Below are positions 1-23,863 of a DNA stretch of 64,000 nucleotides, piece after piece. Made by a program: the position numbers and the translations under genes. Under the pieces are notes generated by a model. The model was not told the origin of the DNA. It made no database searches and saw only the letters and a program-made list of their open reading frames with translations. Each line of letters opens with the position of its first letter. The stretch's first letter is position 1. Source of the DNA: Escherichia coli (lineage in GTDB: Bacteria > Pseudomonadota > Gammaproteobacteria > Enterobacterales > Enterobacteriaceae); assembly GCF_009931435.1 (NCBI RefSeq), contig NZ_CP043414.1. One strand, 5' to 3'.

Positions 1-2
1 TG

Positions 3-3000
3 ATGGCCTCCGACGGTACAATCTATAAACGACCACTGTTGTTGAAAGAGCTGAGTAACACCAGTGGTCGAAATTCTACGGCTGAAAACGGTGAAGATTG
101 GGCAAGATTCACCTGGACTCAGTCGGCTGACACCAGCATGAATGGGTGTGGTACAGATTATATGCCGACGCTGGATGGACTGAAGTCTTTGTATGACGCC
201 AATAGCGGTAATGTGATGAGTACGGTGCAGGGATGGCCGGTAAAAACGACCTATCTCACCAATACCCCGAGTGATACGCAAACAGGGAGCCGTTACTACA
301 ATGTGGTGCAACTGAATACTGGTGCAGTCTCACAAATCTCGACGAACACAGTCGTGCAACAAACCTGCCGCACAACGCCGTTGACGGCTGCTAGCCAGAT
401 TACGCTGGAGGCCTCAGACCCCTCGCAATTTGTCAGCATTGACAGTACGCTTAGCGCGATCAAAGTGCAGAAAGGCGATAGCGTGTCGATCCGCATTTCG
501 ACTAAAGATGCACAGGGGAATTTAGTCGGCAATACGCCGTTTGCCCTGAAACACGCTAACCCGGTCAATCGCCAAAATGTGGCGTCAACATCGCAGAAAG
601 TGTCGGTCACGACTGCGTCGGGTACGACGGTGGATACCACTGCATCGACCATTCTGTATGGCGTGACCGGGCCAGACGGAACCACCACGATGACACTCCG
701 ACAGGATGTGTCTACTGGACTCAAAACCGACTTTTATGCTCTGTTGAACGATACCGGCGTGTCGTCGAACACCTTGCCAGTGATCTTCACCGTCGTCACC
801 AGCCCGGATACACCGCTGGCGGCCAACTGGGGGCATATGGCGGAAACCTTTACCAGCAGCAAGGGCGTCACCTTCAAACGGCCTTTCCTCAAAGCTGAAC
901 TTTCTGGTGGTACGGCGGTAACGACCAATAATGAAGTCTGGTCGCGCCTGACAGCAACGGAGAAAACGGATGCCAGCAAGGCTGGGTGTGATGAGAGTTA
1001 TCAACCGCTGATGACTGACATGCAGGGGTTGTATGCGGATTACCCTAACAACCAGTTGGGCACGGTGCTCGGCTTGCCGACTTCCGCCGGGTATATGTGG
1101 GCCTACGACATGATGACGGTTTCTGGCAGCAGCTGGAGCAACCAGGCATATTCGCTCGTTAATGGTCAGACAGTTCAGGCATCGTCCAGTTATACGGCGG
1201 TAGTGATGTGCCTGGTGGAACCGCATACCGTTCCGGCGATGATAGAGATCACTTCAACAGCACAGGATGCGGCAAAAACGGTCAGCAATGGTGGTCGACC
1301 GAGCGCCGTAGCGAAGAAAGGTGAGACGATTCCGCTGACGGTGACCGTACGTGATAGCACCGGGAATCCGGTACCCTACGCCGACTTTACCCTCACGCGT
1401 GGAACGACGCTGGATCGCTCGAAAGCAACCGTTAACTCGAGTGCGGACGATCTTACCGTGAAGTCATTGATACCCGCGAACAGCGACGCTGGGCTGACGG
1501 CAAATGGGGCAAAAGTGCTCAGAACAACGGGCAGTGATGGCACAGCCACCTTTGAAGTGAGCCAGAATGCCACGACAGGTCTGGCGACACCGATAACCGT
1601 CACGCTGGCGCGCGATACAACCAAAACCGCCACGCTGGATGTTATCTACACGGTGATAACCAGCCCGGACTCACCGAGCGCGAAATTCTGGGGATACATG
1701 CCGGACACCTTTACCAGTTCGGCAGGCGTCACCTTCAGACGACCGCTCCTGAAAGCCGAAGCGACTTCAGGGTCATCGATTAGCACTAACGGCAATGGTG
1801 AAGTGTGGTCGTATATGAGCAACGTTCAAAATTTAACATCGACAGATTGTCCGCTGGAGAATCAACCGCGCAGTAATGAATTGTTGGATTTGTATAATGA
1901 TCATCCCAACGGCGCGATAATGACTGACCTGGGGCTGCCGATATATGCAGGCAAGTGGTGGGCTTATGATATGGTCATGCCGGATTTATATACGTGGCAG
2001 TATCAGACTGTCAGCCTGAGCGCAGGAGATATCGCGAAGAGCTCGGCAAACAACGCGCTGATGCTTTGCCTGGCGAAGCCGCATCCGGCAGGCGTCAGCG
2101 TAATGTTGACGTCATCCGCAATGGATAACGCCAGAACCCTCAGTAATGGCGGGCGACCCAGCGCGTCAGTGAAAAAAGGTAACCCACTGCCAATTGTGGT
2201 GACGGTCAAAGATCGTGATGGCAACCCGCTGGCGGGAGAGGCCGTTACGCTCAGGCGTGGTTCAGCGATGAGCCGTTCAGGAGCAGGAGTGGGCACGCCG
2301 GCAAATGCAATGACGTTGACAGAGTTGACACCTGTGTCGGCGGAGTTTTCTCTGGCCGCACACGATACGCAATGGCAAGGTTTCACCGGCAGTGATGGTA
2401 CGGCCACTTTCAATGTTGAACAGCCTGAGACCATCGGCCTGGCCATTCCGTTCACCGCTATACTGGCGCGAGATGTCGCAACTACCAGCGTCCTTGATAC
2501 GATCTTTACCGTCGTCACCAGCCCGGATTCCGCAATGGCGACCTACTGGGGCCATATGCCGGATACGGTAACGGCGGAAAACGGCGTGGTCTTTGAACGG
2601 CCTAAATTGTTGAAAGAGCTGCCGTCGAGCGCCGGAGTCAGTCAGGTGACGGATAACAATGAAGTGTGGCCGTTGTTTAAGGCAACGCAAAGGGAAGATA
2701 GCAGCCTCAGTCCTTGTGAAGCGGCACGTCGGCCATTGAGCGATGATTTATTATCGCTCTACGCGCGCTATCCGGGGAACACGCTGACGACTCAAATCGG
2801 CTGGTCTACGAAGTATGCATGGTGGGCACTGGATAACAAGCAGGGGAATGCCCTGGTTGTCAGTCTGAATAATGGTTTTGAGTCGTCGACGGCGAGTACG
2901 GGGTATCAGGGATGTCTGGTCAATCCCCGCGCGACCGTCTCCAGCGTCACGCTGACATCGACGGTGATAGATGCCACTACGCAGGCGGCGAAGGTAAAAA

Positions 3001-3761
3001 AAGGTGAAGCCGCGCCCGTCGTTGTTACCGTAAAAGACAGCGCCGGGAAGCCGGTACCGAATGTCGCTTTCACCTTAAAACGTGGTGATGCCGTGCCGCG
3101 TAACAGCGGGGCGACGTTGTATGGTGATGTTGCGGCGATGGATGATATGACGGTACAACCTGCCAGCGGGACGGTGGTAACGCTGGCTGACAGTGGGAAT
3201 ACGATCGACGGTGTGACAGGGGCGGACGGTACGGCAAGTTTTGCCGTTCGTCAGGATAATACGCCAGGATATAAAACGCCGTTGACGGTGACGCTGACGG
3301 ATAACGCCACAATAACGGCGACGCTGGATACGATTTTCACCGTGCCGACCAGCCCGAATGTCGCCACGGCGTATTTCTGGGGGCATATGGCGGATACCGC
3401 CACCGTAAGTGGCAAGACGTTACATCGCCCGCTATTGCAATCAGAGTTGCCGTCAGGGGCTACAGCGGCAGTAGCGCCAACGGTGAATAATGAAATCTGG
3501 GCGCTGGCACATGTGATCGATGCTCAAAAATGGGATATTGCAAAGCAGTGCGGTGACTTTAGTAGAGCACCGAGCTATACCGATTTACAGTCGTTACATA
3601 GCAGCTTTAGCGCGCTGGGATGGCCATCATCGATAAGCTTCCCCTATTTCTCTACCGATCGGGCCGGTTCGTTCTATTGTGGCATGGATGAAGGGGCGGG
3701 GACACAAAACTGCGGTATTCAGGCATCCAGTACTGCGGGGTTTGCAACCTGTTTCCAGTAG
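3..3761 (+). CDS. Large repetitive surface/adhesin-like protein, RatA/RatB-like; 5'-truncated by window edge (C-terminal 1252 aa present)
   Basis: Open frame runs from the window start. Four tandem modules of about 285 aa each begin near nt 781, 1641, 2501 and 3331 with a conserved motif (FTVVTSPD...WGHM.DT.T...GV.F.RP.L.KEL). Position next to xseA matches the Salmonella CS54 islet; the family assignment is from memory. Confidence 0.6.
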   Translation: MASDGTIYKRPLLLKELSNTSGRNSTAENGEDWARFTWTQSADTSMNGCGTDYMPTLDGLKSLYDANSGNVMSTVQGWPVKTTYLTNTPSDTQTGSRYYNVVQLNTGAVSQISTNTVVQQTCRTTPLTAASQITLEASDPSQFVSIDSTLSAIKVQKGDSVSIRISTKDAQGNLVGNTPFALKHANPVNRQNVASTSQKVSVTTASGTTVDTTASTILYGVTGPDGTTTMTLRQDVSTGLKTDFYALLNDTGVSSNTLPVIFTVVTSPDTPLAANWGHMAETFTSSKGVTFKRPFLKAELSGGTAVTTNNEVWSRLTATEKTDASKAGCDESYQPLMTDMQGLYADYPNNQLGTVLGLPTSAGYMWAYDMMTVSGSSWSNQAYSLVNGQTVQASSSYTAVVMCLVEPHTVPAMIEITSTAQDAAKTVSNGGRPSAVAKKGETIPLTVTVRDSTGNPVPYADFTLTRGTTLDRSKATVNSSADDLTVKSLIPANSDAGLTANGAKVLRTTGSDGTATFEVSQNATTGLATPITVTLARDTTKTATLDVIYTVITSPDSPSAKFWGYMPDTFTSSAGVTFRRPLLKAEATSGSSISTNGNGEVWSYMSNVQNLTSTDCPLENQPRSNELLDLYNDHPNGAIMTDLGLPIYAGKWWAYDMVMPDLYTWQYQTVSLSAGDIAKSSANNALMLCLAKPHPAGVSVMLTSSAMDNARTLSNGGRPSASVKKGNPLPIVVTVKDRDGNPLAGEAVTLRRGSAMSRSGAGVGTPANAMTLTELTPVSAEFSLAAHDTQWQGFTGSDGTATFNVEQPETIGLAIPFTAILARDVATTSVLDTIFTVVTSPDSAMATYWGHMPDTVTAENGVVFERPKLLKELPSSAGVSQVTDNNEVWPLFKATQREDSSLSPCEAARRPLSDDLLSLYARYPGNTLTTQIGWSTKYAWWALDNKQGNALVVSLNNGFESSTASTGYQGCLVNPRATVSSVTLTSTVIDATTQAAKVKKGEAAPVVVTVKDSAGKPVPNVAFTLKRGDAVPRNSGATLYGDVAAMDDMTVQPASGTVVTLADSGNTIDGVTGADGTASFAVRQDNTPGYKTPLTVTLTDNATITATLDTIFTVPTSPNVATAYFWGHMADTATVSGKTLHRPLLQSELPSGATAAVAPTVNNEIWALAHVIDAQKWDIAKQCGDFSRAPSYTDLQSLHSSFSALGWPSSISFPYFSTDRAGSFYCGMDEGAGTQNCGIQASSTAGFATCFQ

Positions 3762-3816
3762 TCTTAACGGGTCTGTAAATGGGGGCCAAGATGTAAATAA
3801 GATTCGCAATACGTCA

Positions 3817-5214
<1,398 letters not shown>

Positions 5215-5273
5215 TTATTCAGTCGATAGTAACCCGCCCTCCGGGGATAGCAAGCATTTTTTGCAAAAAGGGG

Positions 5274-5302
5274 TAGATGCAATCGGTTACGCTCTGTATA
5301 AT
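5274..5302 (+). promoter_or_regulatory. guaBA promoter region; -10 TATAAT at 5297-5302, possible PurR-like operator at 5277-5292
   Basis: TATAAT hexamer 44 nt upstream of the guaB ATG; ATGCAATCGGTTACGC resembles the PurR consensus with mismatches. Confidence 0.45.
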
Positions 5303-5345
5303 GCCGCGGCAATATTTATTAACCACTCTGGTCGAGATATTGCCC

Positions 5346-6812
5346 ATGCTACGTATCGCTAAAGAAGCTCTGACGTTTGACGACGTTCTCCTCGTTCCTG
5401 CACATTCTACCGTTCTGCCGAATACCGCTGACCTCAGCACCCAGCTGACGAAAACTATTCGTCTGAATATCCCTATGCTCTCCGCAGCAATGGATACCGT
5501 AACGGAAGCGCGCCTGGCTATCGCCCTGGCTCAGGAAGGCGGTATCGGCTTTATCCACAAAAACATGTCCATTGAACGCCAGGCTGAAGAAGTTCGCCGC
5601 GTGAAAAAACACGAATCTGGCGTGGTAACCGATCCGCAGACTGTTCTGCCGACAACCACCCTGCGTGAAGTGAAAGAACTGACCGAGCGTAACGGCTTTG
5701 CAGGCTATCCGGTAGTTACCGAAGAAAACGAACTGGTCGGCATCATCACCGGTCGTGACGTGCGTTTTGTTACCGACCTGAACCAGCCGGTCAGCGTTTA
5801 CATGACGCCGAAAGAGCGTCTGGTAACCGTGCGTGAAGGCGAAGCCCGTGAAGTTGTGCTGGCAAAAATGCACGAAAAACGCGTTGAAAAAGCGCTGGTG
5901 GTTGATGATGAATTCCACCTGATCGGCATGATCACTGTGAAGGACTTCCAGAAAGCGGAGCGTAAACCGAACGCCTGTAAAGACGAGCAAGGCCGTCTGC
6001 GTGTTGGTGCAGCGGTTGGTGCAGGTGCGGGTAACGAAGAGCGTGTTGATGCGCTGGTTGCCGCAGGCGTTGACGTTCTGCTGATCGACTCCTCTCACGG
6101 TCACTCTGAAGGCGTTCTGCAGCGTATCCGTGAAACTCGCGCTAAATATCCTGATCTGCAAATCATCGGCGGCAACGTGGCAACAGCTGCAGGTGCCCGC
6201 GCGCTGGCAGAAGCCGGTTGCAGTGCCGTTAAAGTGGGTATCGGCCCTGGTTCTATTTGTACTACCCGCATTGTTACTGGCGTCGGTGTTCCGCAGATCA
6301 CCGCCGTTGCTGACGCAGTAGAAGCCCTGGAAGGCACCGGGATTCCGGTTATCGCAGACGGTGGTATTCGTTTCTCTGGCGATATCGCGAAAGCTATCGC
6401 TGCTGGTGCAAGCGCGGTGATGGTAGGCTCCATGCTGGCGGGTACTGAAGAATCCCCGGGTGAAATCGAACTCTACCAGGGCCGTTCTTACAAGTCTTAC
6501 CGTGGGATGGGCTCTCTGGGCGCGATGTCCAAAGGTTCTTCTGACCGTTACTTCCAGAGCGACAACGCTGCCGACAAACTGGTGCCGGAAGGTATCGAAG
6601 GCCGTGTAGCCTACAAAGGTCGTCTGAAAGAGATCATTCACCAGCAGATGGGCGGCCTGCGCTCCTGTATGGGCCTGACCGGCTGTGGTACTATCGACGA
6701 ACTGCGTACTAAAGCGGAGTTTGTACGTATCAGCGGTGCGGGCATTCAGGAAAGCCACGTTCACGACGTGACCATTACTAAAGAGTCCCCGAACTACCGT
6801 CTGGGCTCCTGA
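5346..6812 (+). CDS. guaB: IMP dehydrogenase
   Basis: 488 aa from the ATG at 5346 ([13 protein letters not shown]...); the ORF track's upstream extension is rejected in favour of the conserved start. Confidence 0.97.
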
Positions 6813-6880
6813 TTCTCTTCGCCCGACTTCATGTCGGGCGATTTATATTATCTGTTTCACTTGCCTCGGAATAAGCGTCA

Positions 6881-8458
6881 ATGACGGAAAACATTCATAA
6901 GCATCGCATCCTCATTCTGGACTTCGGTTCTCAGTACACCCAACTGGTTGCGCGCCGCGTGCGTGAACTGGGTGTTTACTGCGAACTGTGGGCGTGGGAT
7001 GTGACAGAAGCACAAATTCGTGACTTCAATCCAAGCGGCATTATTCTTTCCGGCGGCCCGGAAAGCACCACCGAAGAAAACAGCCCGCGTGCGCCGCAGT
7101 ATGTCTTTGAAGCAGGCGTACCGGTATTCGGCGTTTGCTATGGTATGCAGACCATGGCAATGCAGTTGGGTGGTCATGTTGAAGCCTCTAACGAACGTGA
7201 ATTTGGCTATGCGCAGGTTGAAGTCGTAAACGACAGCGCACTGGTTCGCGGTATCGAAGATGCTCTGACAGCAGACGGTAAACCTCTGCTCGATGTCTGG
7301 ATGAGCCACGGCGATAAAGTTACCGCTATCCCGTCCGACTTCATCACCGTAGCCAGCACCGAAAGCTGCCCGTTCGCCATCATGGCAAATGAAGAAAAAC
7401 GCTTCTATGGCGTACAGTTCCACCCGGAAGTGACTCATACCCGCCAGGGGATGCGCATGCTGGAGCGTTTTGTGCGTGATATCTGCCAGTGTGAAGCCCT
7501 GTGGACGCCAGCGAAAATTATCGACGATGCAGTAGCCCGTATCCGCGAGCAGGTAGGCGACGATAAAGTGATCCTCGGCCTCTCTGGTGGCGTGGATTCC
7601 TCCGTGACTGCAATGCTGCTGCACCGCGCAATCGGCAAAAACCTGACTTGCGTATTCGTTGACAACGGCCTGCTGCGTCTCAACGAAGCAGAGCAGGTTC
7701 TGGATATGTTTGGCGATCACTTTGGTCTGAACATTGTTCACGTTCCGGCAGAAGATCGCTTCTTGTCAGCGCTGGCTGGTGAAAACGATCCGGAAGCAAA
7801 ACGTAAAATCATCGGTCGCGTTTTCGTTGAAGTATTCGATGAAGAAGCGCTGAAACTGGAAGATGTGAAGTGGCTGGCGCAGGGTACTATCTACCCTGAT
7901 GTTATCGAATCTGCCGCGTCTGCAACCGGTAAAGCTCACGTCATCAAATCTCACCACAACGTGGGCGGCCTGCCGAAAGAGATGAAGATGGGCCTGGTTG
8001 AACCGCTGAAAGAGCTGTTCAAAGACGAAGTGCGTAAAATTGGTCTGGAGCTGGGCCTGCCGTACGACATGCTGTACCGTCACCCGTTCCCGGGACCAGG
8101 GCTTGGCGTTCGTGTGCTGGGCGAAGTGAAGAAAGAGTACTGCGACCTGCTGCGCCGTGCTGATGCCATCTTCATTGAAGAACTGCGTAAAGCGGACCTG
8201 TACGACAAAGTTAGCCAGGCGTTTACCGTGTTCCTGCCGGTACGTTCTGTTGGCGTAATGGGCGATGGTCGTAAATACGACTGGGTTGTGTCTCTGCGTG
8301 CCGTCGAAACCATCGACTTTATGACCGCACACTGGGCACATCTGCCGTACGATTTCCTTGGTCGCGTTTCCAACCGCATTATCAATGAAGTGAACGGTAT
8401 TTCCCGCGTGGTGTATGACATCAGCGGCAAGCCGCCAGCGACTATTGAGTGGGAGTAG
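6881..8458 (+). CDS. guaA: GMP synthase (glutamine-hydrolysing)
   Basis: 525 aa [25 protein letters not shown]...; 68 bp downstream of guaB. Confidence 0.97.
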
Positions 8459-8500
8459 GACTGGCTATAAATAGTAAATTAAGCCTTTCCAACTAACTTT

Positions 8501-8532
8501 AATGCCAGTCAGTTTGCTGACTGGCATTTTTT
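8501..8532 (+). terminator. Intrinsic terminator of guaBA
   Basis: 12 bp perfect stem (AATGCCAGTCAG / CTGACTGGCATT), 4 nt loop, then a T6 run; 43 nt after the guaA stop. Confidence 0.75.
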
Positions 8533-8752
8533 ATTGGTTTTTCATTGAGTTTATGACTTCTATTTTTAAGGCCGTAACTCTATAACATCGGCTATGGCCT
8601 AAAGATAAAAGCCATTACCAACAAAATGGCGGTATTCCAAAACAGTCTAGCCGGAAGTGCTTACAATGAGATCGATCAAATCGACAAATGAGATACTGGC
8701 CGTTGTGAGCGCCCGGCAACCGTAGCCGTAGGGGGCGAATTTAATGGCTTTG

Positions 8753-9529
8753 TTATGAGCCATTGGTAATCGCACCCATGACAATTTGAAAGAGTTCTTC
8801 TGCTCGATTAGTGGAGCCAATTGCACCTCTTTCTCTCGCCATTCTCTTGTGCTCTGGTAGATCTGAGGACGCATAGATCATAAAAGGAGTTTTGTCTCCC
8901 ATTGCGCGTAATCTTTCTAGTAAGACATAACCTTCTTGCGCCCCTTCTTTGCGATCCATATCCGAAATAATAGCTGCAAACTTATTTGTTTTTAACAATT
9001 CCAAGGCTTCGTCAGTTGAAAGAGCTAAAGCGAACTCTATTCCCTGTGCCTCAAATGCCTGTCTTTCGTAAACATTATTTTCTGGTCGATCATCCACCCA
9101 TAAAATACGATTTCGCCATTTTTCATGCTTACTCTGCCGTTTTGCATTGGATACAACGTTGACGATTTTTTGCAGTTGGCTTTCAGTGACCCCTGCACTA
9201 TTTTCAGGCTGTTTTGCTGTGGCGGCGGTCAATGATGCTGCTGTAGCTATTTGCGCTCTTAAAAAATTATTTTCATCTTTGAAATCTGACGGCCCGTAAA
9301 GCTTATTATGATGTTTCGCAACAAGCCAGAGAAAGCCAAGAAACACAATGACAGGAAAGAAAACCATGAAATAAATAAGGGGAGCTATATGCTCTGATAA
9401 GCCATTACCAAAGCCAACGACGAAAGAGGCAAATCCATAAACGAGAACAATAAAGAGTGCAATGATACCAAGAGGGCTTTTGGTAAATCCTATTGCAGTT
9501 TCAGCAAATTTCTCTGGTTCCATATCCAT
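8753..9529 (-). CDS. Membrane-anchored receiver-like (CheY-fold) protein: two predicted TM helices plus C-terminal pseudo-receiver domain
   Basis: 258 aa ORF. Hydrophobic stretches at about residues 19-41 and 48-72. Residues about 141-252 align by eye to CheY (ILWVDD for the beta1 acidic pair, IISDMD for the phospho-acceptor Asp, IYASS for the Thr/Ser position), but no lysine at the K109-equivalent position. Low GC, about 40 percent. Confidence 0.55.
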   Translation of the reverse strand: MDMEPEKFAETAIGFTKSPLGIIALFIVLVYGFASFVVGFGNGLSEHIAPLIYFMVFFPVIVFLGFLWLVAKHHNKLYGPSDFKDENNFLRAQIATAASLTAATAKQPENSAGVTESQLQKIVNVVSNAKRQSKHEKWRNRILWVDDRPENNVYERQAFEAQGIEFALALSTDEALELLKTNKFAAIISDMDRKEGAQEGYVLLERLRAMGDKTPFMIYASSDLPEHKRMARERGAIGSTNRAEELFQIVMGAITNGS

Positions 9530-9616
9530 CCTCAGTATTGCTCATAACACAGTTAAGTTGTATTAGATCAGACCTGATCTGACAATTACCGGCTATTTAT
9601 AAAGGTATCTGTCAGA

Positions 9617-10012
9617 TTACATCTGGCTTAAGTTTTTCTCATCCCAGATGTGCTTTCCATCAAGTAACGTTTCCATCGGCGTTCGGCCACTGCACATTTT
9701 TCCCTGATGGGTTCGCTCATTATTATAGTGAACCCGCCATTCATCAAGAACCGATTGTAATGCTTCAAGATCATCATATAACTTTTTGCGGAACGTCACC
9801 TGATAAAACTCGTTCAGTATCGTTTTATGGAACTGCTCGCAGATACTATTGGTCTTAGATGACATTGCTTTCGTTTTCGTATGCTCAATATCATTTATCG
9901 CCAGATAAAGCTGGTAATCATGCTGCTCCACTTTACCGCAATCTCTTGGTGTATTGAGAGGCGGGTTATAAAATAAATACTGATACCATGAGGGCGGATC
10001 AATCGTGGTCAT
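9617..10012 (-). pseudogene. 3' remnant of a DDE (rve-type) transposase gene
   Basis: 131 aa ORF whose C-terminal part (SSKTNSICEQFHKTILNEF...HYNNERTHQG...GRTP) matches the integrase-core C-terminus typical of IS481/IS3-type transposases. The N-terminal two thirds of a transposase are absent and the ATPase gene abuts the truncation point. Confidence 0.55.
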
Positions 10013-10027
10013 AGTATCAGGTCATTC

Positions 10028-11542
10028 TCATGGGTTTATTGCGTCCCTGAAGATGACGTCGCTGACCATCTCTCCTCCAAGAAAATCGATCAACATATTC
10101 GAGTTTTCAAGGTCTTCTCTGGTCAATGCCCCGATTGCTTGTCCAACTACTACCTCCCAAGGTTTTTTACACTCAACAATAGCACAGACGAGTTGGCGGA
10201 TTTTCTTGATCTTCTTGTGACGCAATCGGTCGTTCGATTCCATTAGTTCTGCAATCAACGCTATGTCGGAGTGTGTTTGATTATCCTCAACCCATTTTTT
10301 GGCTGCGTCTACAAATTCCACCCATGTAACATTCATTACTGCAAGGCATGAATCAGTCAAAAGAACATTTTCGATAGCGTAGCATCGTAAGCGATAGCGT
10401 TTAAGAGGTAGGCGATGTTCAAGCGACTTGTTGATTACACCATCGCCATCACGAAGGGAAAAGGCGATTGGATTGTCATAGAGTGTACTAAGGAGGTCTA
10501 CGCAAAAATCCTCAAGTTGACTCTGTTGATCTACGCTACCTGCTAGTACGGGAAAGATTTTTATTCGACCCTGTGATGTTCTGGCCGCTTGTTGCCAGAC
10601 TCGTTCGTCGTCCTCTCCTTCCAAAATTAATGCAGCGTCTTCGCTAAGAGAAAGCGATAGGGGGTGCCCGAAGAATGGTGCAATCTTTCGAAGTTCATCG
10701 CTGGCCGGTATCAATGAGATTTCATTTACTGCAAAGCTCTTCGTGCCGATTGATACATATGGGGAGGCGGCAAGAGAACAGACGAGCGGGGAACTATGGG
10801 TGGATAAGCATATGGCAATACTGTTCGCGTGTGTTCTAAATTCGTCGAGCATACTGATTATCAGCTTGCCCAGTCTAGCTTGGAGGTCGGGGTGCAGATG
10901 TACATCAGGCTCATCGAGGAGGAGTACGTTGAATTTCTCCGGATCTATTGTGTCGAAGAAATAGATGATTTCCGCGGCTAATGCAACCGCTTCCGATTCA
11001 CCGCTACTGATTTGGGCCGGATCAATAATCTGACCATCTACAAGTGATCGAAACTCATAATCGACATTACCCATCTCGAGCGAAATGTTAGTGAGAAGCT
11101 GATTAATTTTACTTAATCGGTCTGTCTGAAAGTTTCGCGTTAGATCAGTTCGAATTTCCGGAGTATTGGCAAGTCGACGTAAGTAAAGCGTCTCGGCCTC
11201 GCGAAATAGCATAGCCGATGCAGCTTTGAAGTTGCTTGCCTGATTAACTGCCCGAGTGTGCCTCAGCCATTCGGGGTTGTCGCTCATATTTGTGAGGACG
11301 GTGCCATCACGCTTGAACGATCCTGCTCGCTCTGGACTTACATACCGGACATAAAATTGCTGCTTGTTCTGGCTGATTGTTTGTTCGATATCGCGAAGGA
11401 AACGACTTTTTCCCGCACCGTTTCGGCCCATAATTATGTTGATGTTGTTTAAGCCGTAAAGTCGGCCAATTTGGCTAGATAACTCGCTTACTTTCAAGAT
11501 TGTAACTCCATTTCTTGTTGCCACATACGGTAACAAATACAC
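10028..11542 (-). CDS. ABC-type ATPase fused to TOPRIM-like nuclease motif (OLD-family / Gabija GajA-like), candidate anti-phage protein
   Basis: 504 aa ORF. Walker A GRNGAGKS (residues 39-46, nt 11405-11428), signature-like SSGESE (179-184), Walker B VLLLDEPD (206-213), H-loop-like STHS (247-250), TOPRIM-like Glu in LILEGEDDE (E308) and DxD in LRDGDG (D365/D367). Start codon uncertain: GTG at 11542, or a TTG at residue 16 preceded by GGAG. About 43-45 percent GC. Confidence 0.6.
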   Translation of the reverse strand: MYLLPYVATRNGVTILKVSELSSQIGRLYGLNNINIIMGRNGAGKSRFLRDIEQTISQNKQQFYVRYVSPERAGSFKRDGTVLTNMSDNPEWLRHTRAVNQASNFKAASAMLFREAETLYLRRLANTPEIRTDLTRNFQTDRLSKINQLLTNISLEMGNVDYEFRSLVDGQIIDPAQISSGESEAVALAAEIIYFFDTIDPEKFNVLLLDEPDVHLHPDLQARLGKLIISMLDEFRTHANSIAICLSTHSSPLVCSLAASPYVSIGTKSFAVNEISLIPASDELRKIAPFFGHPLSLSLSEDAALILEGEDDERVWQQAARTSQGRIKIFPVLAGSVDQQSQLEDFCVDLLSTLYDNPIAFSLRDGDGVINKSLEHRLPLKRYRLRCYAIENVLLTDSCLAVMNVTWVEFVDAAKKWVEDNQTHSDIALIAELMESNDRLRHKKIKKIRQLVCAIVECKKPWEVVVGQAIGALTREDLENSNMLIDFLGGEMVSDVIFRDAINP

Positions 11543-11800
11543 TAACTGAATAGGTGCGTTGATGCCTCATTTTGTTCACATCTATGTTGAAATTAGTGAT
11601 GTGAACGAGCTAAGGACTCTATTAGGAGTAGAGCGGCCATATTGTTCGTCTGAACAGCCTGTAGACAGCTCTATTATTGAGACATGGTATTTTTCGTGGT
11701 ATCTGCTAAGTAGTTTGTTTCAAGGCATTGATTTATTTATATTTTATTTTCTCATTGATAGCTGAGTGGGAATGATTTGATCCCTGCACTATGAATTAGC

Positions 11801-11830
11801 AAAACCCTCTGTTACTACAGAGGGTTTTTT
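11801..11830. terminator. Bidirectional hairpin terminator downstream of yfgI, at the islet boundary
   Basis: AAAA-CCCTCTG-TTACTA-CAGAGGG-TTTTTT; the A-tract/T-tract flanks allow termination in both directions. Confidence 0.55.
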
Positions 11831-11868
11831 ATACTCACGAATCATAGGATTGAAGTTACTGACATCGC

Positions 11869-12408
11869 TTAGTTAAACCAGCTGTCCGATTTGTTCTCTT
11901 CTGCTTTGCCCACGCTTTTCATCAGATCGCGACCGCCTTCAGTCATATTCCTGTTTGCGTCAGCTTCAGATTGCACCACATCGGTTTGCGCAGCTTTGTG
12001 CTTCAGTTCCTGATCGATAAATTCGTTTTCTCGCTTAACGCGGGCTTCTTCTTTCGCCAGCGCCAGTTTTTGTTTCTGAATCTCTAAGCTGCGTAGCTCA
12101 TCTTCATAACTTTGATCGCGTTTCTTGTCCGCAGTGGCTTCGGCGTCCAGTTTATCCTGACGAGCTTTCTTATTTGCCGCTGCCGTTGCCGCTCTTTTGT
12201 TAGCGGCGGCCTGGGCGTTTGCGCGACGTTGCTTCTCTTGCTGGATTTCCCTGTTGCGCTCCGCGACCCATTCGTCATGCTGCCTTTGCTCTTCATTTTT
12301 ACCTTGCTGTTCCGCTTCTGCGACAGCAGAGAGTTGATCCTGCAATGATGAGGCGATAGCCGGATAGCTTAAGGAGGCTAAGATGGCGCAAAGAAAAACT
12401 TTCTTCAT
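11869..12408 (-). CDS. yfgI: Periplasmic protein YfgI
   Basis: 179 aa, signal peptide MKKVFLCAILASLSYPAIA, charged K/E/Q-rich body; synteny with yfgH. Confidence 0.85.
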   Translation of the reverse strand: MKKVFLCAILASLSYPAIASSLQDQLSAVAEAEQQGKNEEQRQHDEWVAERNREIQQEKQRRANAQAAANKRAATAAANKKARQDKLDAEATADKKRDQSYEDELRSLEIQKQKLALAKEEARVKRENEFIDQELKHKAAQTDVVQSEADANRNMTEGGRDLMKSVGKAEENKSDSWFN

Positions 12409-13795: not shown

Positions 13796-16039
13796 ATGAA
13801 ACTGAATGCAACCTATATAAAAATACGTGATAAATGGTGGGGGCTTCCGCTGTTCCTGCCTTCTTTCATCTTGCCCATTTTCGCCCATATTAATACTTTC
13901 GCGCATATTTCTTCCGGTGAGGTTTTTCTCTTTTACCTGCCTTTGGCACTGATGATCAGCATGATGATGTTTTTCAGCTGGGCGGCATTGCCAGGGATCG
14001 CCTTAGGGATTTTTGTCCGCAAATATGCAGAGCTGGGTATTTACGAAACGCTCTCATTAACAGCTAATTTTATTATCATTATCATTCTCTGTTGGGGCGG
14101 TTACAGGGTCTTTACTCCCCGGCGTAACAACGTTTCACATGGTGATACCCGTTTAATTGCCCAGCGTATATTCTGGCAGATTGTATTTCCTGCAACGCTG
14201 TTTCTAATACTTTTCCAATTTGCTGCGTTTGTTGGATTACTGGCGAGCAGAGAAAATCTGGTCGGCGTCATGCCTTTTAACCTCGGGACCTTAATCAATT
14301 ATCAGGCCTTACTGGTGGGCAATCTGATTGGTGTTCCGCTGTGCTACTTCATCATTCGGGTGGTGCGAAATCCGTTTTATTTACGCAGCTATTATTCGCA
14401 ATTAAAACAGCAAGTTGATGTCAAAGTCACCAAAAAAGAGTTCGCGCTCTGGCTACTGGCATTAGGTGCGTTGTTGTTGCTGTTATGCATGCCGTTAAAT
14501 GAAAAAAGCACGATTTTCAGCACCAATTATACCTTGTCATTATTGCTACCCCTGATGATGTGGGGAGCCATGCGCTATGGTTATAAGTTGATTTCGCTGC
14601 TCTGGGCGGTCGTGCTGATGATCAGCATCCACAGCTATCAAAATTACATTCCCATTTATCCTGGCTATACCACGCAACTGACCATAACCTCCTCCAGTTA
14701 TCTGGTATTCTCTTTTATTGTCAATTATATGGTTGTACTGGCAACCCGTCAGCGAGCGGTAGTCAGACGCATTCAGCGGCTTGCGTATGTGGACCCGGTG
14801 GTTCATCTGCCAAATGTTCGCGCCCTGAATCGCGCGTTGCGTGATGCCCCCTGGTCTGCGCTTTGTTATTTACGCATCCCCGGCATGGAAATGCTGGTTA
14901 AGAACTATGGCATCATGCTACGGATTCAATACAAGCAAAAACTTTCTCACTGGCTGTCACCATTGCTGGAACCGGGTGAAGATGTTTATCAGCTTTCGGG
15001 TAACGATCTCGCGCTGCGACTGAATACAGAATCGCACCAGGAGCGCATTACCGCACTGGATAGCCATCTCAAGCAATTTCGTTTCTTTTGGGATGGAATG
15101 CCGATGCAACCGCAGATTGGCGTCAGTTACTGCTATGTGCGCTCGCCAGTGAATCATATCTACTTACTGCTGGGAGAGCTAAATACGGTCGCCGAACTTT
15201 CCATCGTGACCAACGCCCCGGAAAATATGCAGCGTCGCGGGGCAATGTATTTGCAACGCGAATTGAAAGATAAAGTCGCGATGATGAATCGGCTACAGCA
15301 GGCGCTGGAACACAACCATTTTTTCCTGATGGCCCAGCCGATTACCGGTATGCGTGGTGATGTCTACCATGAGATCCTTCTGCGCATGAAAGGTGATAAT
15401 GATGAACTGATCAGCCCCGACAGCTTCTTGCCGGTCGCGCACGAATTTGGTTTATCGTCGAGTATCGACATGTGGGTCATTGAGCATACGCTGCAATTTA
15501 TGGCTGAAAACAGAGCGAAGATGCCCGCTCACCGTTTTGCGATTAATCTGTCGCCAACCTCGGTATGTCAGGCTCGTTTTCCCGTTGAAGTCAGTCAGCT
15601 GCTGGCTAAATACCAGATTGAAGCGTGGCAACTTATTTTTGAAGTCACCGAAAGTAATGCGCTGACCAATGTTAAGCAGGCGCAAATCACCTTGCAGCAT
15701 CTTCAGGAATTAGGCTGCCAGATTGCGATTGATGATTTCGGCACCGGCTACGCCAGCTATGCGCGGCTTAAAAATGTGAATGCCGATCTCCTTAAAATTG
15801 ACGGCAGTTTTATCCGCAATATTGTGTCAAATAGTCTGGATTACCAGATAGTGGCGTCGATTTGTCACCTGGCGCGAATGAAGAAAATGCTGGTAGTGGC
15901 AGAGTACGTTGAAAACGAAGAGATCCGCGAGGCGGTGCTTTCTTTAGGGATAGATTATATGCAGGGTTATCTTATTGGTAAGCCGCAACCGTTAATTGAT
16001 ACGCTGAATGAAATCGAACCCATTCGCGAAAGTGCCTGA
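13796..16039 (+). CDS. pdeF: Cyclic-di-GMP phosphodiesterase PdeF (MASE1 - degenerate GGDEF - EAL)
   Basis: 747 aa; multi-TM N-terminus; EAL-domain motifs in the C-terminal part. Confidence 0.92.
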   Translation: MKLNATYIKIRDKWWGLPLFLPSFILPIFAHINTFAHISSGEVFLFYLPLALMISMMMFFSWAALPGIALGIFVRKYAELGIYETLSLTANFIIIIILCWGGYRVFTPRRNNVSHGDTRLIAQRIFWQIVFPATLFLILFQFAAFVGLLASRENLVGVMPFNLGTLINYQALLVGNLIGVPLCYFIIRVVRNPFYLRSYYSQLKQQVDVKVTKKEFALWLLALGALLLLLCMPLNEKSTIFSTNYTLSLLLPLMMWGAMRYGYKLISLLWAVVLMISIHSYQNYIPIYPGYTTQLTITSSSYLVFSFIVNYMVVLATRQRAVVRRIQRLAYVDPVVHLPNVRALNRALRDAPWSALCYLRIPGMEMLVKNYGIMLRIQYKQKLSHWLSPLLEPGEDVYQLSGNDLALRLNTESHQERITALDSHLKQFRFFWDGMPMQPQIGVSYCYVRSPVNHIYLLLGELNTVAELSIVTNAPENMQRRGAMYLQRELKDKVAMMNRLQQALEHNHFFLMAQPITGMRGDVYHEILLRMKGDNDELISPDSFLPVAHEFGLSSSIDMWVIEHTLQFMAENRAKMPAHRFAINLSPTSVCQARFPVEVSQLLAKYQIEAWQLIFEVTESNALTNVKQAQITLQHLQELGCQIAIDDFGTGYASYARLKNVNADLLKIDGSFIRNIVSNSLDYQIVASICHLARMKKMLVVAEYVENEEIREAVLSLGIDYMQGYLIGKPQPLIDTLNEIEPIRESA

Positions 16040-16077
16040 ACAGCGAGGGCCGACATTTCTCGTCGGCCCGCAAAGCA

Positions 16078-19690
<3,613 letters not shown>

Positions 19691-19861
19691 TACCACTTTT
19701 ACTCCGTTTTATTCACGGGACACTGCCTGGATATTATGGCGAGCAATATTGGCAGATGTCCAACTATGCCAGAAAAGGGGGAAAAAAACTGCTGGAGCTT
19801 GCGATTTACAGGTGAATTGAAAAACGCCAGCGGCAGAGCTGGCGCTTTAACTACGGGGGCA

Positions 19862-20499
19862 TTACTCGTCGGCAGCGTAGCCCTGCGGCGGCAGACGTTG
19901 ACCATCCAGCCACGCGGCGTTTTCGTGCATTTTCAGACGACCATCGGCAAACCAGCTAATCACCAGTGGATAAATAGCGTGTTCCTGGGTTTGCACGCGG
20001 GCGGTGATGTCATCCTCCGTATCACCAGCAAATACCGGGACTTTCGCCTGTAAAATAACCGGGCCACCGTCCAGTTCATCGGTGACGAAATGCACCGATG
20101 TACCGTGCTCTTCATCGCCATTTTCCAGCGCCTGACGATGGGTGTGTAATCCGGGATATTTCGGCAGCAGAGAAGGGTGAATGTTCAGCAAACGCCCGGC
20201 ATAGTGGGAGACAAACGCCGGGCTGAGAATGCGCATAAAACCAGCCAGCACGACCACATCGGGTGCGTACATGTCGATTTCATGAATCAACTCCCGGTCA
20301 TAGGCTTCACGACTGTCAAACGCGCTGGCGATGAGCGTATGCGTTGCAATACCCGCCTGGCGGGCGCGTTCAAGGCCGAACGCGTCGGCCTTATTGCTGA
20401 AAACTGCCCGTACGGTGCCTTTAATTTTATTGGTTTTGCAGGAGTCAATAATTGCCTGCAAATTACTTCCGTTGCCGGAAATAAGCACCACAATATTCA

Positions 20500-20500
<1 letters not shown>
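19862..20500 (-). CDS. purN: Phosphoribosylglycinamide formyltransferase 1
   Basis: 212 aa, MNIVVLISGNGSNLQAIID...; start overlaps the purM stop. Confidence 0.96.
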
Positions 20501-21555
<1,055 letters not shown>

Positions 21556-21600
21556 TTACTTGCGGTAGAAAAATAAAATTCGGCGCAATTCTAACAGGGA

Positions 21601-21616
21601 AAGCAAACGTTTGCGA
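21601..21616. promoter_or_regulatory. PurR operator of purMN
   Basis: AAGCAAACGTTTGCGA, a near-perfect match to the PurR palindrome, about 65 bp upstream of the purM start. Confidence 0.65.
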
Positions 21617-21791
21617 GACTGCTTTACACAACCTTTTTGCACGTCTTTTCCCCAGGCGCGCGGCGAAAGAATACTTGTACCAGGGCAAAGGATCGTTTTC
21701 GGATGGAATAATCTTCTTCCATAACCATTTGAATACAAAATAACTTTATCTCAAACCGTTATCATTTTGACTAAAGTCAACGAAAATAATA

Positions 21792-21835
21792 TTGCCGCCT
21801 TGAAGAAAGGAGGTATAATCCGTCGATTTTTTTTG
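21792..21835 (+). promoter_or_regulatory. upp promoter with T8 initiation tract (UTP-sensitive reiterative transcription)
   Basis: -35 TTGCCG (21792-21797), 16 bp spacer, -10 TATAAT (21814-21819), then GATTTTTTTTG at 21825-21835. Confidence 0.65.
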
Positions 21836-21861
21836 TGGCTGCCCCTCAAAGGAGAAAGAGT

Positions 21862-22488
21862 ATGAAGATCGTGGAAGTCAAACACCCACTCGTCAAACAC
21901 AAGCTGGGACTGATGCGTGAGCAAGATATCAGCACCAAGCGCTTTCGCGAACTCGCTTCCGAAGTGGGTAGCCTGCTGACTTACGAAGCGACCGCCGACC
22001 TCGAAACGGAAAAAGTAACTATCGAAGGCTGGAACGGCCCGGTAGAAATCGACCAGATCAAAGGTAAGAAAATTACCGTGGTGCCAATTTTACGTGCCGG
22101 TCTGGGGATGATGGACGGTGTGCTGGAAAACGTTCCGAGCGCGCGCATCAGCGTCGTCGGTATGTACCGTAATGAAGAAACGCTGGAGCCGGTACCGTAC
22201 TTCCAGAAACTGGTTTCTAACATCGATGAGCGTATGGCGCTGATCGTTGACCCAATGCTGGCAACCGGTGGTTCCGTTATCGCGACCATCGACCTGCTGA
22301 AAAAAGCGGGCTGCAGCAGCATCAAAGTTCTGGTGCTGGTAGCTGCGCCAGAAGGTATCGCAGCGCTGGAAAAAGCGCACCCGGACGTCGAACTGTATAC
22401 TGCATCGATTGACCAGGGACTGAACGAGCACGGATACATTATTCCGGGCCTCGGCGATGCCGGTGACAAAATCTTTGGTACGAAATAA
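21862..22488 (+). CDS. upp: Uracil phosphoribosyltransferase
   Basis: 208 aa from [20 protein letters not shown]...; Shine-Dalgarno AAAGGAGA. Confidence 0.96.
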
Positions 22489-22503
22489 AGAATAAAAATT
22501 ATT

Positions 22504-22533
22504 AAAGCCGACTTTAAGAGTCGGCTTTTTTTT
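22504..22533 (+). terminator. Intrinsic terminator/attenuator between upp and uraA
   Basis: AAAGCCGACT / AGTCGGCTTT stem followed by T8. Confidence 0.7.
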
Positions 22534-22573
22534 GAGTAAAGCGCCTATAACACATAATACAGAGGAATATACT

Positions 22574-23863
22574 ATGACGCGCCGTGCTATCGGGGTGAGT
22601 GAAAGACCGCCACTTTTACAAACAATCCCGCTTAGTTTGCAACATTTGTTCGCCATGTTTGGTGCAACCGTCCTGGTGCCCGTCTTATTTCATATTAACC
22701 CGGCGACTGTACTGTTATTCAATGGTATCGGGACGCTGCTGTATCTCTTCATCTGTAAAGGGAAAATCCCGGCTTATCTTGGTTCCAGCTTTGCCTTTAT
22801 TTCACCGGTATTGTTACTGTTGCCGTTAGGGTATGAAGTCGCGCTGGGCGGCTTTATTATGTGCGGCGTGCTGTTCTGCCTGGTTTCTTTTATCGTGAAG
22901 AAAGCGGGGACCGGCTGGCTGGACGTGCTGTTTCCACCTGCGGCAATGGGCGCAATCGTTGCCGTCATCGGTCTGGAGTTGGCGGGCGTAGCTGCCGGTA
23001 TGGCAGGTTTACTCCCGGCTGAAGGGCAAACGCCAGACTCCAAAACCATCATCATCTCCATTACCACGCTGGCAGTCACGGTTTTAGGTTCCGTGCTGTT
23101 TCGTGGTTTCCTGGCAATTATCCCGATTTTAATTGGCGTGCTGGTGGGCTACGCGCTCTCTTTCGCAATGGGAATTGTCGATACTACGCCGATTATTAAT
23201 GCTCACTGGTTTGCGCTGCCAACTCTCTATACGCCGCGCTTCGAGTGGTTTGCCATTCTGACTATTCTGCCAGCGGCGTTAGTGGTTATTGCCGAACACG
23301 TAGGGCACCTGGTGGTAACGGCTAATATCGTCAAAAAAGATCTGCTGCGCGATCCAGGTCTGCACCGTTCGATGTTTGCTAACGGCTTGTCGACCGTGAT
23401 CTCCGGCTTCTTTGGCTCCACGCCAAATACTACCTACGGGGAAAACATTGGCGTGATGGCGATCACCCGTGTTTACAGTACCTGGGTTATCGGCGGGGCG
23501 GCGATTTTCGCTATCCTGCTTTCCTGCGTCGGTAAACTGGCTGCTGCTATCCAGATGATCCCATTGCCGGTGATGGGCGGCGTTTCGCTGCTGCTTTATG
23601 GTGTTATCGGTGCTTCCGGTATTCGTGTTTTGATCGAATCGAAAGTGGATTACAACAAAGCACAGAACCTGATCCTGACTTCTGTCATTTTGATCATCGG
23701 TGTCAGTGGCGCGAAGGTAAACATCGGCGCGGCGGAGCTGAAAGGTATGGCGCTGGCGACCATCGTCGGTATCGGCTTAAGTTTGATCTTCAAACTGATT
23801 AGTGTGCTGCGCCCTGAAGAAGTGGTGCTGGACGCAGAAGACGCGGATATAACAGACAAATAA
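22574..23863 (+). CDS. uraA: Uracil:H+ symporter
   Basis: 429 aa from [21 protein letters not shown]... Confidence 0.96.

Follow-up and report, generated by a model that had tools for sequence, protein, structure and literature searches.

A ratA-like gene of the sinH-sinI-ratA islet of Escherichia coli and the likely display of its product as a multivalent adhesin

At one end of a 64,000-nucleotide stretch of Escherichia coli DNA (hereafter the window), a reading frame on the plus strand is open from nt 3 to a stop codon at 3759–3761 (1252 codons) and encodes a protein built from repeats, beside xseA. Which gene this is, and how its product might reach the cell surface, are the questions that the locus raises. 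The window edge cuts the gene, which is 8085 nt long: positions 3–3761 (+) make up its 3′ 46%, the 5′ part lies upstream, and the ATG at nt 3 is not the start codon but encodes residue 1443 of a 2694-aa protein. The full-length protein was taken from an E. coli genome (locus L001) with an allele identical over the window's ratA-like gene, where the window part lies at L001:20003–23761 within a CDS annotated at 15677–23761; window and L001 are 99.6% identical over nt 1–8454. It is in this allele that the full gene and the signal peptide, which the first-pass annotation had suggested seeking upstream, are found. The coordinates of the features are collected in Table 1.

Table 1. Features of the window at the border between the islet and xseA.
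Feature	Position (nt)	Strand	Basis
ratA-like CDS, 3′ part	1..3761	+	Residues 1443–2694 of 2694 plus stop 3759–3761; identity to L001; NCBIfam RatA-like positions 1438–2683 of 2683
Module 5 of 9, 5′ end cut by window: most of adhesion domain, BIg21	3..782	+	Motif positions, module alignment
Module 6, 287 aa: InvE_AD, then BIg21	783..1643	+	Pfam InvE_AD residues 8–144 (E 4e-29), BIg21 180–287 (E 2e-20)
Module 7, 286 aa: adhesion domain, then BIg21	1644..2501	+	Motif positions, module alignment; 45% identical to module 6
Module 8, 277 aa: adhesion domain, then BIg21	2502..3332	+	
Terminal adhesion domain, 142 aa, 4 Cys, ends ...ATCFQ, no Ig domain after	3333..3758	+	Pfam InvE_AD E 3.7e-22, profile 1–135 of 136
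ratA-like/xseA spacer	3762..3816	.	55 bp between convergent stops
xseA (exodeoxyribonuclease VII large subunit), 455 aa, islet right-hand border	3817..5184	-	Pfam Exonuc_VII_L, TIGR00237

The frame ends 55 bp from the stop codon of the convergent xseA, as had been read from the sequence at first pass, and no terminator-like hairpin was found in this spacer by a consensus scan. The xseA gene of the window has only 85% DNA identity to that of K-12. GC content is 53–60% across ratA and 51–56% in the flanks, a difference that is not diagnostic of horizontal transfer. A search of Rfam with window positions 1–12000 gave no match. Antisense open reading frames within the gene (213, 171, 142, and 137 aa) and a 158-aa frame over the stop codon were taken as chance occurrences, since none has a Pfam family.

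The full-length protein scores 5410 bits against the NCBIfam equivalog model NF011844 (RatA-like protein; curated cutoff 3870), and the alignment runs end to end, with residues 3–2694 matched to profile positions 1–2683 of 2683. The window part alone reaches 2252 bits (profile positions 1438–2683), only because it represents half a gene. Against the models for S. Typhimurium RatA (NF011843) and RatB (NF011842), the full-length protein scores 2015 and 2238 bits, below the respective cutoffs of 3700 and 4079, and it is therefore not an equivalog of either. As judged from these profiles, the protein and Salmonella RatA/RatB are members of the same superfamily that fall in different orthologous groups. 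Because a database search for homologues returned only proteins of up to 536 aa, full-length homologues were read from the loci themselves. RefSeq already contains an identical protein (WP_105288174.1); the gene is the known E. coli ratA-like gene at a known variable site, accessory, virulence-associated, and annotated, and the finding is thus real but already described.

The RefSeq gene order in L001 is der-yfgJ-sinH-sinI-[ratA-like]-xseA-guaB, with sinH and sinI directly upstream of the ratA-like gene on the same strand. Both neighbours were identified by curated models: SinH scores 1474 bits against NF033423 (inverse_SinH, cutoff 999) and SinI 377 bits against NF040711 (partner_SinI, cutoff 165). 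The sinH and sinI genes of the window's own genome lie outside the window, and their presence is deduced from the high identity with L001. In L001 and four other E. coli genomes yfgJ is located upstream of sinH. In K-12, xseA overlaps yfgJ, which is followed by der, and there is no islet between, in agreement with what the first-pass annotation stated of that strain; its proposal of a RatA/RatB-type repeat protein in the CS54 position is likewise supported, both by the NF011844 score and by the site between yfgJ and xseA after sinH and sinI. Nor did the two observations that it had named as evidence against that proposal materialize: K-12 is without the gene, and the full-length protein has a Sec-type signal peptide and no enzymatic domain in Pfam, rather than the features of a cytoplasmic or enzymatic protein. 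The three-gene sinH-sinI-ratA islet of extraintestinal E. coli is the CS54-derived ila cluster (PMC12928451, PMC3739510). The islet is present in 752 out of the 5426 complete genomes of E. coli, and SMS-3-5 and CFT073 are among the ila-positive strains. The same succession of yfgJ, IAT_beta, sinI-like, ratA-like, and xseA genes is also preserved in three further contigs, in which the RatA N-termini are only 45–57% identical to that of the window allele, and housekeeping identity to K-12 ranges from E. coli-like (der, 97%) down to 84% (guaB).

The 2694-aa product begins with a Sec-type signal peptide (MSVCLKPGKIIMLLGMLAAFMLSDFARA, with GAE following), judged by eye and by its conservation in homologues; a lipobox was sought at this N-terminus and is absent. 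After the signal peptide comes an all-β region of about 190 residues, and an AF2 model of residues 29–317 is all-β and composed of β-sandwiches that resemble Ig and macroglobulin-type sandwiches, not a β-helix. Residues 1–317 give only BIg21 in Pfam and no TPS (haemagglutination activity) domain. In BLASTP comparisons, the RatA N-terminus shows no similarity to SinH, and only a marginal Ig-type match to SinI (E 0.004). In the full protein, a BIg21 Ig-like domain is paired with an InvE-type adhesion domain nine times in succession, as delineated by Pfam and by motif-defined modules, and the C-terminal end of the chain is a four-cysteine adhesion domain. The arrangement that characterizes inverse-autotransporter passengers, in which Ig-like domains carry an adhesion or lectin-like cap, is thus present. 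IAT_beta is absent from the window part and from the N-terminal 317 residues in a Pfam scan that finds it in SinH with E 1e-105, and on the basis of these domain searches the protein has no β-barrel of its own and is predicted not to be self-exporting.

Within the window part, five InvE_AD and four BIg21 stretches alternate in Pfam. The repeat starts marked by (I/V)(F/Y)TV.TSP(D/N) lie at nt 783, 1644, 2502, and 3333, close to the 781, 1641, 2501, and 3331 of the first-pass annotation. The repeat itself therefore stands, but the count of four modules of about 285 aa followed by a tail does not: there is one module cut by the window edge, three full ones, and a terminal unit. The supposed distinct Cys-containing C-terminal region apart from the modules is this last unit, a complete InvE_AD domain, whose cysteines are the pair common to all adhesion domains and two extra ones; the four cysteines and the final C.Q are preserved in a homologue (L010) from a different genus-level background. 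Of the two motifs said to occur in every module, GGRPSA..KKG is found in only two, and RP.L.KEL is exact in only two, its general form being RPxLxxE. The adhesion domains are 28–38% identical among themselves, with a conserved Cys pair in each. The modules share 26–52% protein identity and 37–58% codon-aligned DNA identity, with between-module local alignment scores 21–76 SD over shuffled controls, and Tandem Repeats Finder detected no DNA-level repeat in nt 1–3800 at a minimum score of 30. The repeat is, by these comparisons, apparent only at the protein level, which bears out the suggestion of an old duplication that has diverged in its DNA.

Taken together, the window holds the distal half of the E. 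coli ratA-like gene, which is third in the CS54-like ila islet. Its product is probably exported by Sec and then displayed on the surface or secreted, most likely through SinH, as a multivalent adhesin. The adhesin-tip homology and the signal peptide point to a surface location. Sec would carry the protein into the periplasm, and the outer membrane would be crossed by means of a partner, most likely the adjacent inverse autotransporter SinH and perhaps also SinI, in a two-partner manner like that of ZirT/ZirS. A long beads-on-a-string rod could then display nine lectin-like tips, which may make the protein a multivalent adhesin, or a factor for colonisation of the gut and urinary tract. Rat-like proteins were proposed as substrates of the neighbouring inverse autotransporter by Heinz et al. 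2016 (PMC4943183), and the same transport-platform idea was put forward for IatB (= SinH) of strain SMS-3-5 by Goh et al. 2019 (PMC6714894), who also showed that iatB depends on LeuO/H-NS. Structural work indicates that a single helix already fills the inverse-autotransporter barrel, which is hard to reconcile with SinH acting as a translocase (discussed in PMC4943183). With respect to function, deletion of the ila genes is stated to attenuate UPEC in mouse urinary tract infection in a passage of PMC12928451 that cites Shea et al. 2022, and ratB to be required for caecal colonisation by S. Typhimurium in the part of PMC3680342 that cites Kingsley et al. 2003.

RatA could instead leave the cell independently of SinH, by the T2SS or another general route, with the adjacency of sinH reflecting shared regulation or history, and we give this a minor but appreciable chance. 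A precedent is InvL of Acinetobacter baumannii, a barrel-less invasin-like protein with Ig and lectin-like domains whose secretion and surface exposure depend on the T2SS (PMC9245377), and the RatA signal peptide is of the Sec type, as in T2SS substrates. Given a hairpin with a 17-bp stem between sinI and ratA (L001:15607–15643), transcription of ratA may be separate from that of sinH-sinI. IatB/SinH mediates the formation of biofilms in the absence of the gene downstream of it (PMC6714894), and a folded RatA of about 280 kDa would be hard to thread through a 12-strand barrel. The analogy is weakened by the fact that InvL is a lipoprotein, and independence from SinH is disfavoured by the occurrence of the ratA-like gene directly after inverse-autotransporter and sinI-like genes in all of the contexts that were examined, deeply diverged as these are.

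It is improbable that RatA stays in the periplasm, or that its gene is decaying and no longer has a role, the effects of the islet then stemming from SinH alone. A table in PMC3680342, citing Kingsley 2003, records no virulence role for S. Typhimurium ratA or sivI, and in two metagenome/SRA contigs (L009 and L010) the ratA-like gene is called in two or three pieces, although such splitting may come from errors in assembly. A further resemblance of the N-terminal model is to the MG domains of the α2-macroglobulins of the periplasm, but this likeness is that of a generic β-sandwich fold, and the domains of the protein are those of the solved adhesin tip of InvE. Decay is at odds with the state of the alleles: the frame is intact over 2694 codons, as are those of four further E. 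coli alleles, the five measuring 2691–2696 aa, and nine modules are retained in all three alleles scanned for motifs. Compared with the SMS-3-5 allele, dN/dS is 0.03–0.55 along the full length and hence well under 1 over the whole gene, although dS (0.1–1.1) rises to about 1. These low ratios, and the intact alleles, argue for a functional gene. The window allele is rare: of the 5426 complete genomes, only two reach 99% identity or more across the query. The common allele differs from it substantially, with 84% DNA identity for a 5.2-kb query and 86.5% protein identity; the divergence peaks in modules 7–9, at 71–77% protein identity.

RatA resembles the giant repeat adhesins secreted by type I systems (SiiE, LapA, Bap) in its size and in the style of its Ig-like repeats. 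That it is one of them is effectively ruled out by the cleavable-type N-terminal signal peptide, the absence in Pfam of RTX/HemolysinCabind repeats and SiiE-type BIg domains, an islet without ABC/MFP/TolC-type genes, and a C-terminus that is a folded cysteine-rich adhesion domain.

Display by SinH remains the preferred reading, and the nine-fold adhesin-tip architecture turns the published idea of SinH as a translocator into a concrete, testable question. More tentatively, RatA might be the true cargo of SinH and SinI an adaptor, in which case ila would be a type Ve "two-partner" system that exports a chain of about 280 kDa, and the nine adhesion domains may bind different ligands. If so, the deep allelic lineages in E. 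coli, with dS up to about 1 and RatA N-termini down to 45% identity (L008, in an E. coli-like background), would reflect long-term balancing or host-driven selection on the adhesin array. Among the candidates now considered for an ExPEC vaccine is SinH (PMC12525524, PMC9937491), and both the strong allelic divergence of ratA and the 94% DNA identity of sinH bear on estimates of antigen coverage.

Among known systems, the closest is the RatA-like protein of SMS-3-5 (WP_000109693.1; NF011844 / PRK15316), which is encoded at the same chromosomal site in the same gene order, and has 2691 residues compared with 2694 and nine modules in both. The UPEC locus studied by Shea et al. 2022 is a further example of the ila cluster with this RatA-like protein. 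The CS54 islet of Salmonella enterica occupies the same xseA-yfgJ site and has the neighbours sinH (sivH) and sinI (sivI) (PMC3739510), whereas the E. coli islet is without ratB or shdA. Salmonella RatA (NF011843, 1860 aa) and RatB (NF011842, 2435 aa) have the same DUF823/DUF824 (now InvE_AD/BIg21) repeat architecture, but their module counts differ from that of the E. coli protein, and the best-scoring aligned stretch of their models covers only its first ~1450–1490 residues. Each domain pair of the RatA-like protein corresponds to the two-domain tip of Yersinia pseudotuberculosis InvE (PDB code 5N40), and a profile built from the adhesion domain by itself has its sole match in InvE residues 216–334 (E 6e-33). 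InvE has its own N-terminal IAT β-barrel and bears one adhesion domain, located at the tip. RatA differs in lacking a barrel and in containing nine copies of the tip unit, so that adhesion domains also lie in the middle of the chain.

The ZirT-ZirS/ZirU system of Salmonella consists of an inverse autotransporter and co-encoded secreted Ig-fold partners. The ila islet likewise has an IAT_beta gene followed by genes for barrel-less Ig-fold proteins with signal peptides, and this model has been proposed for SinH/SinI/Rat-like proteins (PMC4943183, PMC6714894); in size, RatA exceeds ZirS about tenfold. InvL of A. baumannii shares with RatA the lack of a barrel and is an invasin-like adhesin whose Ig domains carry a lectin-like cap (PMC9245377). 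It is, however, a small lipoprotein exported by the T2SS, whereas RatA, with 2694 residues and no lipobox, is linked to the gene of an inverse autotransporter.

The open frame that runs from nt 3 of the window to the TAG at 3759–3761 (1252 codons) is the 3′ part of an already annotated and published gene, truncated here by the window edge. A megablast search with window 1–5200 against 5426 complete E. coli genomes returned a 100% match in strain 2020CK-00188, where the full coding sequence (L001:15677–23761, 8085 nt) specifies the 2694-residue WP_105288174.1, annotated as "adhesion domain-containing protein". The last 1252 residues of this protein are identical to the translation of the window frame, and therefore 46% of the gene lies within the window. 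The ATG at window nt 3 was rejected as start codon since it is internal to the coding sequence in L001. A gap of 55 bp separates the stop codon from that of xseA, which is followed by guaB and guaA. No terminator-like hairpin was found in the 55-bp spacer, no Pfam family in antisense ORFs within the ratA-like gene, and no Rfam match in window 1–12000.

Features located in the window
Feature	Position (nt)	Strand	Size, family or basis
Cut unit	3–782	+	motif positions, Pfam
Final adhesion domain, no Ig domain after it	3333–3758	+	InvE_AD profile positions 1–135 of 136, E 3.7e-22 (Pfam)
xseA	3817–5184	-	455 aa; Exonuc_VII_L, OB fold, TIGR00237; convergent to ratA-like gene
Membrane protein with receiver (REC) domain	8753–9529	-	258 aa; within 3.3-kb insertion
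IS remnant with rve_3	9617–10012	-	within 3.3-kb insertion
AAA_15/AAA_21 ATPase	10028–11542	-	504 aa; within 3.3-kb insertion

Against the NCBIfam equivalog NF011844, "RatA-like protein", the full protein scores 5410 bits (cutoff 3870), with residues 3–2694 aligned to profile positions 1–2683. Upstream on the same strand are sinH (1474 bits with NF033423; an IAT_beta barrel is present) and a gene of the SinI family; yfgJ and der lie ahead of these two. In K-12, xseA overlaps yfgJ with nothing in between. The first-pass annotation had proposed a RatA/RatB-type protein at the position of Salmonella CS54 in a non-K-12 arrangement; most of what it observed holds, and the family assignment and the upstream genes support its interpretation. 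The name RatA is also borne by an unrelated ribosome-association toxin. The CS54 gene is mislabelled as that toxin in a table of PMC3680342. In E. coli, the three-gene sinH, sinI, ratA islet is the "ila" (intimin-like adhesin) cluster, which is considered to be derived from CS54 and is common in UPEC (PMC12928451); where that paper cites Shea et al. 2022, deletion of ila genes is stated to cause attenuation in mouse UTI. An STEC O117 strain was described in 2013 as having "a 10-kb PAI harboring ratA, sivI and sivH" (PMC3739510), and "SinHI RatA invasins" have been described in ST131 genomes (bioRxiv 10.1101/2022.05.07.487787).

The motif (I/V)(F/Y)T(V/T).TSP(D/N) is present in nine copies in the full protein, four of them in the window at nt 783, 1644, 2502, and 3333, i.e., within 1–3 nt of the module starts first noted. 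Pfam divides each unit into two domains: first InvE_AD, the "adhesion domain" once named DUF823 (PF05689), then the Ig-like BIg21, once named DUF824 (PF05688). Units are 268–287 aa in length, except for the last (142 aa). Five InvE_AD and four BIg21 stretches fall in the window part. The repeat itself was correctly recognized, but the layout of four modules of about 285 aa and a separate tail has to be replaced by one cut unit, three complete ones (287, 286, and 277 aa), and an adhesion domain at the end. The C-terminal region does contain cysteines as described, but is not distinct, being itself an InvE_AD domain. Two conserved Cys, spaced by about 70 residues, occur in every adhesion domain. 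The terminal domain has a further two, and its four Cys, together with the C-terminal C.Q, are conserved in a homologue of distant enterobacterial origin. A GGRPSA..KKG motif, ascribed to each module, occurs in two units only.

Pairwise identity between units is 26–52% for protein and 37–58% for codon-aligned DNA. Since inter-unit local alignment scores lie 21–76 SD over shuffled controls, and Tandem Repeats Finder detects no repeat at the DNA level, the duplication is real and, as first proposed, old. Comparison across strains revealed no variation in repeat copy number among five alleles (2691–2696 aa), with a motif scan of three of these (L001 and the E. coli loci L003 and L005) giving nine modules each at nearly equal positions.

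At least 80% of a 5.2-kb query is present in 752 of the 5426 genomes. The window allele is rare, with two genomes at least 99% identical and 13 at 95–99%; the common allele, found for example in SMS-3-5, has 84% identity to the query. Over its full length, the gene is 86.2% identical to that of SMS-3-5 at the DNA level and 86.5% at the protein level, in a mosaic pattern with 96–99% at residues 1200–1400 and 71–77% at residues 2100–2500. Because dN/dS is 0.03–0.55 in all 100-codon bins with dS 0.1–1.1, the codon comparison indicates deeply diverged allelic lineages under purifying selection, and not decay. Searching with the RatA N-terminus gave homologues no longer than 536 aa, most of them fragments, but full-length RatA-like proteins of about 2700 aa are apparently missing or unreachable in the searched index, and absence of long matches does not equal absence of homologues. 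On contig L008 (5208–9668), a sinH/sinI/ratA islet with a RatA N-terminus only 45% identical to the window allele accompanies E. coli-like der (97%) and bamB (98.9%); very different islet versions therefore coexist in E. coli-like genomes.

The flanking housekeeping genes (window 3817–8458, and der at L001:10385–11857) are unusually diverged from K-12, with identities of 85% for xseA, 94.5% for guaB, 96.1% for guaA, and 92.7% for der, compared with 96.2–97.4% elsewhere in the window. Over its last ~150 nt, where the K-12 gene overlaps yfgJ, xseA is unrelated (60–63%) between islet-bearing strains and K-12. Together, these differences suggest that whole islet and flank haplotypes are exchanged by recombination. 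E. coli Rb-50 (L005:1–711) has one more gene for an "adhesion domain-containing protein" (2355 nt), located upstream of yfgJ. In the non-E. coli contig L009 (397–5265, 15814–17190), a classical autotransporter of 1622 aa lies upstream of yfgJ, and ratA and xseA are separated by an M4 peptidase and emfourin pair. The islet site can thus hold extra cargo. Directly after the guaA stop, the window has a 3.3-kb insertion (8455–11762), with all genes on the minus strand, that resembles a small defence-type islet. K-12 and SMS-3-5 lack this insertion, as does 2020CK-00188, which otherwise nearly matches the window; at this site it is found in only 27 of the 5426 genomes. An element with an integrase gene occupies the site in another strain (L006).

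Residues 1–28 form a putative Sec signal peptide that has an A-x-A site and lacks a lipobox, a pattern maintained in homologues. An AF2 model of residues 29–317 (25 homologues; pLDDT 80.8) is all-beta and matches Ig/MG sandwiches. For modules 8 and 9 (adhesion domain, Ig domain, and terminal adhesion domain), the model has a mean pLDDT of 86.5, with a 25-row input alignment that combined internal repeats of three alleles with one distant homologue. No TPS domain, IAT_beta, or RTX repeat was detected by Pfam in the window part or N-terminus. Three further contigs show the order yfgJ, IAT_beta gene, sinI-like gene, ratA-like gene, xseA; their RatA N-termini are only 45–57% identical to the window allele, and their backgrounds are E. 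coli-like (L008, der 97% identical to K-12) or have guaB 88.8% (L009) and 83.8% (L010) identical to K-12. The ratA-like gene is persistently linked to an inverse autotransporter gene and under purifying selection; RatA has a putative signal peptide and no barrel, and repeats a solved adhesin tip nine times.

We consider it reasonably probable that RatA would be exported by Sec, would then cross the outer membrane with SinH, possibly assisted by SinI, in analogy to ZirT for ZirS/ZirU, and would serve at the surface as a multivalent adhesin or colonisation factor; most doubt concerns the export step. Outer-membrane passage of Rat-like proteins in this manner was proposed by Heinz et al. (PMC4943183), and a ZirT-like transport idea was raised for IatB/SinH by Goh et al. 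(PMC6714894). In the 109-bp sinI–ratA gap, a perfect-looking hairpin with a 17-bp stem and a weak T-tail (L001:15607–15643) could act as a terminator or attenuator and uncouple ratA expression from that of sinH–sinI. This strong hairpin counts against SinH-aided export, as does the occlusion of the inverse-autotransporter barrel by one helix (PMC4943183), and, where PMC3680342 cites Kingsley 2003, the lack of a reported mouse phenotype for S. Typhimurium ratA. Export independent of SinH, e.g., by a T2SS, is rather unlikely; it has a precedent in InvL (PMC9245377), which, unlike RatA, is a lipoprotein. A periplasmic or functionless RatA is less likely still, given the intact frames and low dN/dS, and a T1SS giant adhesin is effectively excluded.

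The exit route and ligand of a barrel-less chain of ~280 kDa with nine adhesin tips are questions about the RatA family in general rather than about the window alone. The protein differs from its S. Typhimurium counterparts in scoring below cutoff with both the RatA (2015 < 3700) and RatB (2238 < 4079) models. Modules 8 and 9 match Yersinia InvE in sequence (phmmer, E 3e-19), and InvE residues 216–334 are the sole match of a profile of the adhesion domain only (E 6e-33).
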